DNA from: Bryobacterales bacterium
GTDB lineage: Bacteria > Acidobacteriota > Terriglobia > Bryobacterales > UBA6623
Length of the DNA stretch: 64,000 nt
NCBI GenBank assembly: GCA_965216215.1
Contig: CBDCFO010000008.1
Coordinates: 1,750,726 to 1,814,725 of the forward strand
Reading direction: 5' to 3'
Shown: positions 15,243 to 19,014 of the stretch, in pieces
How positions within the stretch are numbered: the first letter of the stretch is position 1
How the letters are laid out: each line of letters begins with the position of its first letter
Position numbers and translations under genes: made by a program
Notes under the pieces: generated by a model
Databases searched by the model: none
The model's input: the letters and a program-made list of their open reading frames with translations, nothing else
Told to the model about the DNA's origin: nothing

Positions 15243-17188
15243 CAGTGGTAGTACGCCATGCATCCAGGCTCGACTTTCTGCAGGAGTCCGGGCGAGTAGT
15301 CGCGCGCGCTCCAAAACTCCTTGATAGCCTGGCAATTGATGACGGTCGAGACACCCTCGGCTGCCGCAATCTCGTAGCTGCGCTGAAGCGCGGGCGCGAA
15401 ATCCTCCGCCTTGGTCACGTACTCGCCCCGCGCTCCGAGTGCCTCGCCGATCTTCTCGTAGCGCAGGTTCTCCTGAAAGAGGTACATGTGCTGGGCGCGC
15501 GCCGCGCCGCTACGACCCCCGCTCTCACCGCTGCGCCACACACCCCAAGCATTGTTGTTGTAGACCACGATCACCGCAGGAATGCGGTACTTACTGAGCG
15601 TCTCGACTTCCATGCCGGAATAAGCGAAGCCCGCGTCGCCAGTGACGGCAAGAACTGGCGCACCCTTGTAAGGCGCCTGCGGGCCGATTCCCTGCTGAAC
15701 TGCCGCGCCCACGCCAACCGTGTATCCGATGTCCGGCCCGATGGCACCGTATTGGTAGGCGCCATTGCAAATCTGGCCGGGTCGGAAGGCACGCATCCTG
15801 CGGCGGGTGTAGCGCGCGATGCCATAGCCGCCCGAGACGACCGTAGTCTGCTCCCTAGGCACCTTGCCGTTGTAGAGCAAGTCGCCGATTCCCTTCGCGA
15901 TCACTGCCGGATGGACGCAAGACGCTTGCTCGCTGTACTTGAGCCCCAAGCGATAGTGCTCGTCGTTTTCGGCCTCAAAGGCCGCTCGCGCAGCCGCGAG
16001 CTCGTCCCGCCATGCCGGGCGCTTCTTCGGGGGCAAGGCTTCCGCCAGCGCCTCCAAGGCCGCTCGCTCGCAGCTCACGATACCCAGTTCGATCGGAAGA
16101 TTGCGTCCAATGTCAGCAGCGTCCGGATCAATTCGAATATAAGGTACGTCAGGGTCAAAGGAGTATTCGCCGATAGACGGCATACAGTACTGGCCCACCA
16201 GCACGACAAGATCGGCGCTCAGAAGCGCCCCCGGCGCGGTGTTGGCCGAAAGGGGATGATCGTCCGCAAAGTGCCCGCGGCTGGGACCCGACTCCACGAC
16301 AGCGATGTCAGCCTTCTCTGCGGCAGTCTTCAGCGCGTTCCAGGCCTTGCTGTAGAACACTCCCGTGCTGGCAACTATGATCGGCCGCTCCGCCCTCGCG
16401 ATGAGGGCAACAGCCCTGGCAATCTCCTTGGCCGAAGGATGCGGCCTCGAGTCAGTGCGGTATTTCGACTTGTCATGGAAGTACCGCAAGTCCTCCGCGC
16501 TCTCGAACCGCCTGCGCGCGACTTCGCCGGGGAAATCAAGATGCACCGGGCGGGGGACTCCGCTCTTGAGCTGCCGGAAAGCATAGCCTGCGTACTCATG
16601 AACCCGCTCCGGGTTGATGAGCCGCTTTCCATACTTCTTCATGCCGATCGTCGTGGGCTGCTGGTAGACGCGTTGGATCCCTTGCTCGGTGTCCTCCAGC
16701 GCGAGCGTCATGTTGCTCGCGAGCACCAACAGCGGCGAACGCGCCGCGTTGGCCGCACCGATGTTCATGATCATGTTCGTGAAACCCGGGCCCTCTGTCC
16801 CAGACGCCGCAACAATCTCGCCAGTGACACGAGCGAAGCCATCGGCTGCCGAACACATCATCCCTTCGGTGCGGCCGCCGTAACACGGTATGCCCTCCGA
16901 AGCGATCGCATTGATCACGGAGTAGTTCCCGGGGGCGCAAAACAGCGCGGCAAGTCCCTCCCCTTTACATGCCCTGGCGAAGACCTGGGCGCCCGTCATG
17001 GGGAAGTCAGCGGGATTGGGTGCCTCTGCCAGGCTGGCCGGCACTTCGTCCGGGACCCTGATGTTCGAGTCGTGGAGTTCCGTGGTGGACGCCTTCGCAC
17101 CGGCAGCCACGGCGGCGGCGACCGCGCCCCGGGTCACGAACTTGCGCCGCGAGACCGCGCTCGCGTTGTCGTCTCGATCACTTGCCAT
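15242..17188 (-). CDS. Thiamine-diphosphate-dependent enzyme (2-hydroxyacyl-CoA lyase/oxalyl-CoA decarboxylase/ALS superfamily) with Tat-like leader
   Basis: ThDP motif [15 protein letters not shown]...VYNNNAWG; conserved Glu region [14 protein letters not shown]; GPGFTN; N-terminal SRRKFV plus Ala-rich helix. Confidence 0.85.
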
Positions 17189-17222
17189 CGTCAGTCTCCC
17201 TTAGATATCTTCGGCCGCGAGG

Positions 17223-17684
17223 CTAAGGCGTATCAGCCCGCAACCGCTCGGGGCCGATACTGCGCACAAACAGCACCAACTTCCAGATCGCCGTCTCGTC
17301 CAGCTGCTTGCCGAATGCCGGCATTTCATGTCCCGCACCATCCCGGATTGAGACAAAAATTTCGCCGTCCGAAATCCCATAGCGCCACTCGGCGGGATCA
17401 CGCAAGCTAGGTGCCTCGAAGTCGGGATTCGCTTGGGCCCGCCCGTCTGCGCCGTGGCAGTACTGGCACAGCCGCAGGTAGGTCTTCCGCGCATCCCGGA
17501 CGGCATCCGCGGTGTGCGGAACGGGGTTCTTTAGCTCGCGCGCCTTCCCGGCCCGGTCTGGCCCGTCCGCCGCGAGCGCCCAGCAGGCCCCAAGGGACGC
17601 AACCACGACCATTCGCGAGCCCCTCCGCGCGGCTTGGAGGATCCGGGACGCAACGGTTCCGGTTGCTAGCGAACTGGGGCACAT
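17223..17684 (-). CDS. Exported monoheme cytochrome c (start uncertain)
   Basis: CQYCHG heme motif, LKNPVP, SDGEIF, distal EMPAF; signal peptide ending WALAA. Confidence 0.8.
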   Translation of the reverse strand: MCPSSLATGTVASRILQAARRGSRMVVVASLGACWALAADGPDRAGKARELKNPVPHTADAVRDARKTYLRLCQYCHGADGRAQANPDFEAPSLRDPAEWRYGISDGEIFVSIRDGAGHEMPAFGKQLDETAIWKLVLFVRSIGPERLRADTP

Positions 17685-17794
17685 GCGCCGTCTGCCTGAC
17701 CTAAGACCGGGCTCGGCGACGATTCCGTCTCGCGAGGCCGGCACAGACAGGATAGACCAGCAACGCCAGGGCTGCCAAACCACCGAATGCCCCA

Positions 17795-17836
17795 AACAAA
17801 CAAAAAGAAGCCGAACACGGTCTCGCGTTCGGCTTC
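17795..17836 (-). terminator. Rho-independent terminator
   Basis: Perfect 10-bp stem GAAGCCGAAC/GTTCGGCTTC (17807-17816 and 17827-17836) followed on the minus strand by TTTTTGTTTGTTT. Confidence 0.85.
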
Positions 17837-17932
17837 GGCTATTGACCTAAAAGGTGCCGGAGGGGCTTTCAGGGGTCTTTGGTTGAGGATTGTTTTCTTA
17901 CGTTGGTGGGGTGTTTATTCCCCCCCGGCACT
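17800..17932 (-). ncRNA. Candidate stand-alone small RNA (~130 nt)
   Basis: Bounded by a consensus promoter and an intrinsic terminator; closing stem GUGCCGG/CCGGCAC, hairpin GGGG-AAUAAACA-CCCC, A/C-rich unpaired core; no usable ORF. Confidence 0.6.
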
Positions 17933-17937
17933 CATAT

Positions 17938-17966
17938 ACAATACTAGACACCATAGTCTTTGGCAA
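17938..17966 (-). promoter_or_regulatory. sigma70-type promoter with AT-rich UP-like tract upstream
   Basis: TTGCCA (17966-17961), 17-nt spacer, TATTGT (17943-17938); AT-rich tract 17967-18000 in a GC-rich genome. Confidence 0.75.
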
Positions 17967-18098
17967 GCAAAATCTACAAATTTCTGTATATTTTTTCTTG
18001 CAAGCGTCTAAGAGTCACGTTAACTCATTGTGTTTCAATCACTTGCGATCGGAAAAATGGAGTCATTAACAACACCGTCTGAATTCGTAATATGGAAT

Positions 18099-18877
18099 TC
18101 AGCCCATTGCAAGGGCCACTGGACGAATCGGAGAGCCCGTCCCGCCTTGGATCCGCAACGGAGCGGCTGCAAAGATGAACTCGCTCGCGCAAGACGCTGC
18201 GAGCGCTTCGAGATTCAGTGCCTCGATGATATGGATCCCGCTCTCCACGAGCAGATGCACATGCACTGGCATGGACGGCGCTGGCATGAATTCAAAGGCG
18301 ATCGTGTCCGAGCCGCCCGCGAGCACGTTCCTGGAACTCAGCCAGCCGACCGCCTCGCGGTTGATCCCGGGACAGTGCAGGTCATTGATGAACCGCCGCG
18401 GCTGCTGCCAGTAGAGTGCCCAGCCGGTGCGTACGAGGACGACATCACCTGCCCTCGCCTCGACGCCGGCCCGCTCGGGGCGCGCTGCAAGCACTCCGCG
18501 TCCACCACGAAGTCCGCGGGCAGCACGTCAAATCCCTCGCTGGCCGCAACGTCAAGCAGAACTCCGCGTCGGAAGATGGGATCGATCGTGTCGGCATGAT
18601 GCTCGCCGACGCCCGAAGCGTACGACTGGCAGCCGCCGGCATCGGCGCCGCCGAAGAGCTTGCCTCGGAACGAAATATGCGTGCCAACGTGACCGCCGAG
18701 AGCGATCGACTCAGCGGCAGCGCTCGATCCCCGGAACGAGTGATCGCCGTGGGCCTTGGTCAAGCCGTAGAGGAACGGCGGGTGACTGGGATGATGCGGC
18801 ATGCCGACGAAATAGGGCTGTGCCAAGTCAATTGTCCGGGCCTCTTCGACATGGCGCAGGAAGTCTTCGATGCCCAT
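18099..18877 (-). pseudogene. Cyclase/kynurenine formamidase family gene, frameshifted
   Basis: N-half (DLAQPY, HVGTH, RRGVLLDVA) and C-half (GDVVLVRTGW, GSDT, GIHIIEALNL, GGTGSPIRP) lie in different frames, switching near 18475-18485; the DAxxH part of HxGTHxDAxxH is missing. Confidence 0.75.
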
Positions 18878-19014
18878 TGCAGGGCATTCTAACCGGTTCC
18901 GGGTCATCGGGGGTCGAGCGCCGGGTCCTCGGGAGGTTGTGATATTCTCGAAACAGTTCGACGGCGTGTAGGCGGCTCGGCTTCGAAACGTAAGTGCCGA
19001 CCACCGCATCATCC

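Follow-up and report, generated by a model that had tools for sequence, protein, structure and literature searches.

A candidate small RNA gene carried almost throughout the Bryobacterales that displays a large C-rich loop on a G-C clamp

The question raised by this locus is whether a short intergenic gap in a Bryobacterales genome holds a small RNA (sRNA) gene in its own right or the leader of the genes that follow it, and how such an RNA might act. The window (the whole stretch of DNA that was analyzed, 64,000 nucleotides in length) contains, on the minus strand, a gap of 300 bp that is flanked by a frameshifted cyclase gene with its end at 18099 and by an operon for a cytochrome c and a ThDP enzyme. 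The original prediction placed a self-contained sRNA there, in a rare AT-rich island, and named an attenuating leader of the operon as the alternative. The island was confirmed, since the GC fraction is 0.39 to 0.45 at 17800-18100 compared to 0.60 to 0.71 in the flanks, and this is the only AT-rich stretch of the neighborhood. All of the sequence features that had been named were likewise found on the minus strand at the positions assigned to them, and only the fold proved to be different. The RNA sequence is present as a single copy in its own genome. The cyclase gene (PF04199) that lies 5' of the RNA (18099-19012, minus strand) consists of two overlapping open reading frames in different frames (18338-19012 and 18099-18494), and its halves align in a single frame in about 20 relatives; the split looks like a frameshift, reflecting either a pseudogene or a sequencing error.

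A promoter scan of a 2-kb region returned 5 promoter-like sites, compared to 0.5 expected from shuffled sequences. Among the predicted elements, the UP-like tract and the sigma-70-type promoter TTGCCA-17-TATTGT were borne out both by the scan (17966..17938) and by conservation throughout the order, in that a TTG(C) box and a TAnnnT box stand at a constant distance from the closing helix of the RNA (P1) in 88 distinct copies from 50 genera. The tract 5' of the promoter is also maintained, with an A-run and (T/A)CTACA...TGTAGA/GGA kept in the copies from the genus of the window and an A/T-rich ATACA..TTTTT kept in the remainder of the order. The promoter is conserved along with the RNA, as would be expected of an independently transcribed sRNA. 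At the other end, a terminator with a U-tract was found as predicted, but its stem comprises 13 bp rather than 10 bp, with 8 G-C pairs and a 4-nt loop (17836..17807), and is followed by TTTTTGTTTG. In the genus, 24 copies each possess a hairpin of -19 to -29.5 kcal/mol with a U-tract, located 32 to 47 nt 3' of P1, and the sequence of the stem differs each time. A 3' end defined by an intrinsic terminator is therefore a property of the genus copies; outside the genus, a clear canonical terminator is mostly missing. Among the remaining genera of the family, a C/U-rich tail that contains CCUCC (for example, CCCUUUUAACCUCCCC) comes after the clamp, with a terminator after the tail in a few cases. 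The second family has, in place of the tail, a small hairpin with a tetraloop, GCCC[GAAA/GCAA/UUCG]GGGU. The features of the window copy are listed in Table 1.

Table 1. Features of the sRNA locus (positions are those of the window)
Feature	Position	Strand	Basis
A/T-rich UP-like tract with imperfect palindrome TATACA-N6-TGTAGA, just 5' of the -35 box	17973..17996	-	Sequence
Sigma-70-type promoter TTGCCA-17-TATTGT	17938..17966	-	Promoter scan; conservation in 88 distinct copies
-35 box TTGCCA	17966-17961	-	
17-nt spacer of the sRNA promoter, containing conserved CTATG	between 17961 and 17943	-	
-10 box TATTGT	17943-17938	-	
Predicted transcript, ~131-135 nt, start near G17931, end in the U-tract	17797..17931	-	Inferred from position of -10 box and terminator
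P1, 5' strand GUGCCGGGGGGG (conserved 10 bp, 17929-17920)	17920..17931	-	Fold, covariation, RNAalifold
G-poor single-stranded loop of 54 nt with three conserved blocks	17866..17919	-	Alignment of 89 copies, RNAalifold
Loop block 1, CCCACCAA	17910-17903	-	(Near-)invariant in 89 copies
Loop block 2, AUCCUC (order-wide form A(A/U)CCUC)	17890-17885	-	(Near-)invariant in 89 copies
Loop block 3, AGACCCCUGAA	17878-17868	-	(Near-)invariant in 89 copies
P1, 3' strand CCCCUCCGGCAC	17854..17865	-	Fold, covariation, RNAalifold
Single-stranded linker CUUUUAGGUCAAUAGCC, P1 to terminator	17837..17853	-	Fold
Intrinsic terminator: 13-bp hairpin (17836-17807) and U-tract (17806-17797)	17797..17836	-	Terminator scan, genus copies
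Promoter of downstream cytochrome c/ThDP operon, TTGGCA-18-TATCCT (neighbor, outside the RNA)	17749..17778	-	Promoter scan

The 136-nt transcript folded with a minimum free energy (MFE) of -49.5 kcal/mol, compared to -32.2 ± 3.4 kcal/mol for 200 shuffled sequences (z = -5.05), none of which equaled it. Both the MFE structure and the conserved fold consist of a single 12-bp closing stem, GUGCCGGGGGGG/CCCCUCCGGCAC (17931-17920 with 17865-17854), and the 54-nt loop inside it. Previously, a 7-bp GUGCCGG/CCGGCAC closing stem and a separate GGGG/CCCC hairpin had been proposed; the closing stem was recovered at its greater length of 12 bp, while neither the fold nor the alignment retained the separate hairpin. 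The proposed check for covariation in relatives was carried out on a model-based alignment of 89 copies, 84 of them distinct. Standard pairing was observed at the 10 core pairs of P1 in 100% of 838 cells from the 84 distinct sequences, compared to 54 to 69% for slid controls, and 5 of the 10 pairs exhibited compensatory changes (at one position, 43 A-U, 33 G-C, and 8 G.U). RNAalifold recovered the P1 helix independently and predicted no pairs within the loop. Moreover, 45 of the P1 cells are G.U pairs, which would be A.C mismatches on the opposite strand, and this assigned the RNA to the minus strand. The local GGGG/CCCC (or GGAG/CUCC) hairpin, or a switch based on it, was not supported as a conserved element, with 85.7 to 87.1% pairing in the two registers tested; it has a single covarying pair, accompanied by 18 A.C mismatches, and its register varies between clades. 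It would compete with the distal half of the P1 clamp as the weaker of the two pairings, and it may form transiently.

The loop held by P1 contains the unpaired C/A-rich motifs that had been pointed out earlier (CACCCC, AUCCUC, and GACCCC), all of which are present. Only 3 of the 54 nt in the window copy are G, and the other copies, with loops of ~55 nt, are similar. Block 2 is mostly trailed by AACCAAA, such that blocks 1 and 2 resemble a duplicated CCYCA(A)CCAA motif; around block 2, AAUCCUC versus UAACCUC is a change specific to genus. The linkers that separate the blocks are variable and tolerate insertions of up to 13 nt, two of which are found in the window copy and its nearest relative. 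Since 1-nt insertions and deletions occur in these linkers, a coding frame is excluded.

A covariance model built from 19 copies was used to establish how widely the RNA is distributed. It matched 149 of 151 Bryobacterales genomes, representing 50 of 51 genera, nearly always with one copy per genome; the two genomes of the order that lack the RNA are fragmented assemblies. The matches had E-values of 1e-7 to 1e-17 and scores of 63 to 99 bits, where the E-values of a homemade model are rough but the scores are nonetheless far above noise. In about 397 genomes of other Acidobacteriota, the model gave no match. By BLAST, the promoter and RNA body were found in 28 of the 30 genomes that belong to the same genus, and also in further genera of the family, with the terminator sequence not matched. 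Public records that contain the exact core carry the titles Bryobacterales, Bryobacteraceae, Solibacteraceae, Ca. Solibacter, Ca. Sulfopaludibacter, or Acidobacteria gp3, and the RNA is common in soil, peat, and bog metagenomes. Many of the metagenome contigs (loci L248-L327) start or stop within ~30 to 60 nt of the RNA core, for which the simplest explanation is that assemblies break at a sequence that co-occurring Bryobacterales populations have in common.

These contig ends also bear on the possibility that the conserved sequence acts as DNA, as a protein-binding site, a repeat, or an insulator, or that it is a coincidental pairing of promoter and terminator. Metagenome contigs do break at repeats in the same manner, and mechanically called plus-strand open reading frames overlap the RNA. 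However, the compensatory changes and the 45 strand-specific G.U cells in P1 would not be expected of such an element, nor would a promoter conserved at constant spacing; moreover, there is one copy per genome, unlike a repeat family, and the 1-nt linker indels rule out a coding frame. We therefore regard a DNA-level element as extremely improbable. Rather, the locus is very probably a real, independently transcribed RNA gene that is under selection.

Two neighborhoods of the RNA were distinguished. About 25 genomes from the genus of the window share the gene order cyclase, RNA, cytochrome c, and ThDP enzyme. In the remainder of the order, the RNA is located 45 to 80 nt after a 3-hydroxyisobutyrate-dehydrogenase-like gene and 60 to 550 nt before dxr (41 loci fetched). 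The dxr gene of the present genome is on a different contig with other neighbors and lacks the RNA, and with filters off the model gave no match at this genome's own dxr locus. The RNA gene must therefore have moved along with its promoter, and the ancestral dxr locus is rearranged in this genome. The 400 bp 5' of dxr here (G000 C7, L407) contain the end of a multiheme-cytochrome-like open reading frame with several CxxCH motifs, and the dehydrogenase gene is missing. An older origin of the RNA at the dxr locus was considered and rejected, as 23 dxr loci from sister orders gave no model match with filters off.

Further copies of the RNA occur at other loci, and there are tandem pairs ~300 bp apart with distinct promoters; the dispersed paralogues, too, are each preceded by a promoter of their own. 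In one genome, G016, three tandem units of sRNA gene and cytochrome c gene lie ~750 bp apart (L030, G016:C2:124181-128795), and each of these sRNA gene copies has its promoter, RNA, and terminator. Another member of the genus, G018, possesses two divergent paralogues 1.8 kb apart (L375 and L376; G018:C5:3035623-3037496). These paralogues keep the clamp, CCCACCAACGCA, and the CCUCCCCAACCAAA motif, have lost the third block, and share the first block but differ in the middle (CGGCAGUCCCCAGCCGAUGCACCUCCCCAACCAAA). The RNA family may thus be wider than the present covariance model detects.

The arrangement of the copies relative to their neighbors is relevant to the proposal that the RNA is a cis-acting 5' leader or attenuator of the dxr or cytochrome c/ThDP mRNA, controlling read-through via Rho loading or the terminator. 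Indeed, the RNA always lies 5' of, and in the same orientation as, the next gene (dxr at 41 loci and cytochrome c at about 25 genus loci), and in G016 the RNA and cytochrome c gene were triplicated in tandem as a unit. The leader model also keeps some weight because there is no canonical terminator between the RNA and dxr outside the genus. However, dxr and cytochrome c are functionally unrelated, and each has its own conserved promoter-like boxes. In the genus loci, a promoter-like element, TTGGCA-N18-TAT(C/G)CT plus GTCTGTGC, is conserved between the RNA and the start codon of cytochrome c, with TTGGCA...TAT(C/G)CTGTCTGTGC conserved 3' of the terminator in genus relatives; this element presumably serves the operon for the exported cytochrome c and the Tat-signal ThDP enzyme as promoter and leader start. 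A promoter-like box of the TGATATCAT or TATGTTAGG type likewise stands 3' of the RNA and ahead of the dxr start codon. In loci of the second family (L069, L076, L096, L101-L105, and L110-L118), the sequence directly 5' of dxr includes a conserved TGATATCAT/TGATATGAT box, palindromic in part, which is either an extended -10 promoter with a very short leader or an operator.

The structure of the RNA also argued against a leader. The strong terminators of the genus differ in sequence and alternative pairing is not conserved; since the terminator stems share no sequence, a conserved antiterminator is impossible, in agreement with the earlier remark that none could be seen. Moreover, extra copies of the RNA are dispersed elsewhere, there were no matches to Rfam riboswitches or leaders, and one hairpin whose loop lacks structure does not resemble an aptamer. 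A riboswitch or leader would be associated with one gene family and with an expression platform based on alternative pairing, and this was not what was found; the RNA is not bound to one downstream gene, as seen from the two syntenies and the dispersed paralogues. Together, the two neighborhoods, the dispersed copies, the downstream promoters, and the variable terminators favor a free-standing RNA that acts in trans over a leader, and we consider the leader model improbable. In particular, attenuation of the cytochrome c/ThDP operon by a leader, the alternative raised originally, is disfavored, given that the operon has its own conserved TTGGCA-N18-TATCCT promoter, while the order-wide conservation, the two neighborhoods, and the dispersed paralogues lend strong support to a self-contained sRNA that has a promoter and a terminator of its own.

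How such an RNA functions is a separate matter. The best explanation overall, to which we assign an even chance, is an order-specific, nearly universal, free-standing sRNA gene of ~130 nt that acts by base pairing; taken by itself, a base-pairing mechanism is plausible at slightly below even chances. According to this model, a strong sigma-70-type promoter with its UP-like tract would drive a transcript that opens directly with the 10- to 12-bp G-C clamp P1, and P1 would keep an almost G-free loop of ~55 nt open, exposing three C-rich blocks. The RNA would then act in trans, the C-rich blocks pairing with G-rich stretches of mRNA, typically Shine-Dalgarno regions (whose GAGG core is complementary to CCUC), and the CCUCC-rich 3' tail of the sister genera may add to this pairing. 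The predicted consequence would be a block of translation, altered mRNA stability, or both. Such action would proceed without Hfq, and G-C-rich seeds may lessen the need for a chaperone, as in RNAs of the RsaE/RoxS type. Hfq was not detected in this genome, which is 96% complete, by tblastn or with the Pfam model PF17209, and CsrA was not detected in it by tblastn. The C-rich loop with CCUC, the CCUCC tails, and the lack of Hfq therefore make Hfq-independent pairing to G-rich ribosome-binding regions the best-supported mechanism. Consistent with pairing, the loop has no predicted internal structure and almost no G, and its C-rich blocks are set on indel-tolerant linkers; moreover, P1 and the C-rich motifs are all that the divergent paralogues have retained.

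Searches for targets were carried out on 4318 translation-initiation regions of this genome alone, a crude set in that gene starts were crudely called. Duplex-energy prediction over these 4318 regions gave the same distribution for the loop as for 22 shuffled loops. Seed counts in the same regions were also at the level of chance, with 117 seeds of at least 8 nt (123 expected) and 26 of at least 9 nt (28.5 expected). The top seed matches, all within chance, were in genes for a Tat-signal Gfo/Idh/MocA oxidoreductase, a PQQ dehydrogenase, rpsP, and cytochrome oxidase subunit I; rpsP was rejected as a target because even members of the genus do not conserve the site. A genome-wide search for an antisense partner of at least 18 nt yielded none beyond chance. 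Two properties of the loop itself also speak against pairing: a true anti-Shine-Dalgarno core is found in just one block (CCUC), and the ~45 nt of near-invariant unpaired sequence are more than seed pairing usually needs. Such a length of near-invariant unpaired sequence would be accounted for by a protein ligand no less well than by pairing.

A protein-titrating or decoy RNA has to be weighed, in which the G-free C/A-rich loop with its CCYCA(A)CCAA repeats, presented by the clamp, would sequester an RNA-binding protein such as a KH- or S1-type protein or Rho, as CsrB and CrcZ do for CsrA and Hfq/Crc. We judge this to be unlikely. The ~45 unpaired nt are strongly conserved throughout the order and the motif is internally repeated; the UP-like element and good promoter suggest high expression; the mRNA targets showed no detectable enrichment or conservation; and global regulators typically have such a near-universal, single-copy distribution. 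Set against this, the genome has no Hfq or CsrA that could be detected, and GGA motifs are missing from the loop.

Rho, which is present in the genome, merits separate mention among the potential partners. Primary sites of Rho are preferentially C-rich, G-poor single strands of ~60 nt, and the loop is rut-like (54 nt, C-rich, 3 G, and similar in all copies), a resemblance in composition alone. In a more specific form of the decoy model, which we regard as a long shot, the RNA would act in trans as a protein decoy of a novel type, whose closed, G-free, C-rich loop of ~55 to 60 nt approximates the primary-site footprint of a Rho hexamer, cannot be threaded, and so traps Rho or another C-specific protein. 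However, rho copy number does not track the RNA, there being one rho in the second family and two in this family and in some other orders, and binding by Rho needs no precise sequence, which leaves the invariance of the loop unexplained. A link between the RNA and Rho duplication was accordingly dismissed, as co-distribution with Rho paralogues was negative. The two full-length rho genes of this genome lie outside the window, at C8:1437751-1438989 and C7:403860-405104 (G000), and one of them has an N-terminal extension of ~200 amino acids that is rich in Arg, Asp, Glu, and Ser and probably disordered. A sister genus also has two copies of rho. If the decoy reading were true, an abundant RNA would tune termination or translation genome-wide in a lineage devoid of Hfq and CsrA.

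Whether the RNA pairs with mRNAs, as we prefer, or acts otherwise, it represents a core gene, uncatalogued in Rfam, of a lineage in one of the most abundant soil phyla. It offers a testable entry into posttranscriptional regulation in the absence of Hfq, with Bryobacter, Paludibaculum, and Ca. Solibacter as cultivable members, and the covariance model is usable at once for annotating several hundred genomes and metagenome-assembled genomes. The design itself, a clamp with a very large G-free loop, leaves room for another mechanism, for example, a protein decoy.

With regard to known RNA families, cmscan with the 4227 families of Rfam 15 on the region 17000-19000 (E up to 10) left the RNA unmatched, with a best E-value of >1, and Rfam 15 likewise gave no matches at the RNA in 19 distant homologous loci. 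The original statement that the RNA matches no recognizable riboswitch or housekeeping RNA was thus upheld by the cmscan check proposed for it; none of the 6S, SRP, tmRNA, and RNase P models was reported at 17000-19000 at E up to 10. Full-text literature searches returned no paper on sRNAs of Bryobacterales and, for the Acidobacteriota, no small regulatory RNA that has been characterized. Acidobacterial motifs published as candidate RNAs that act in trans are Acido-1 (RF01686), Acido-Lenti-1 (RF01687), and Solibacter-1 (Weinberg et al. 2010, PMC2864571), some of them from Ca. Solibacter usitatus, which belongs to the Bryobacterales. These differ from the present RNA in sequence and in architecture, with either a pair of hairpins whose loops are G-rich or a three-stem repeat, and their covariance models were unmatched at the RNA locus and its homologues. 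Acido-1 was also considered as a G-rich partner or sponge, as its loop GGAGGGGUCU is complementary to AGACCCCU in block 3, but it was discarded since it occurs in 3 of 61 relatives and is absent here. About 1.2 kb 5' of one sRNA copy (L041:285-340), a subthreshold match to Acido-Lenti-1 (RF01687) was seen (30.6 bits compared to a gathering threshold of 37; E = 0.004).

Similarities were more apparent with sRNAs that are built around C-rich motifs. In RsaE/RoxS of Bacillales, sX13 of Xanthomonas, and the alphaproteobacterial CcsR ("cuckoo") RNAs, such motifs are thought or have been shown to pair with G-rich ribosome-binding sites. The present RNA shares with them an own promoter, a length of ~100 to 130 nt, several unpaired C-rich motifs, a presumed lack of strict dependence on Hfq, conservation across an order or class, and occasional paralogues. 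The unpaired C-rich motifs typical of RsaE are indeed found in the loop (CCCACCAA, CCUC, and ACCCCU), a likeness in mode of action only, since the RsaE model was unmatched by cmscan at the locus and at the 19 homologous loci. There is no homology to these RNAs, which belong to different phyla and expose their motifs in small hairpin loops, whereas the RNA described here has one loop of ~55 nt on a long clamp. Yfr1 of cyanobacteria, with ~55 to 65 nt, carries a motif of ~10 nt between two hairpins. Both Yfr1 and the Bryobacterales RNA are near-universal and usually single copy in one lineage, with an extremely conserved unpaired C-rich sequence that is held by helices; however, the Bryobacterales RNA is twice as long, has three blocks in a closed loop, and is not homologous to Yfr1. 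Repeated single-stranded motifs, probably strong expression, and a distribution like that of global regulators are features in common with CsrB/RsmZ and CrcZ, except that the motif here is the C-rich CCYCA(A)CCAA, with 2 or 3 occurrences, rather than GGA or the A-rich CA motif. The RNA is a new family, outside the known families of C-rich-motif sRNAs, and is set apart by its unusual design of one clamp and one giant loop.
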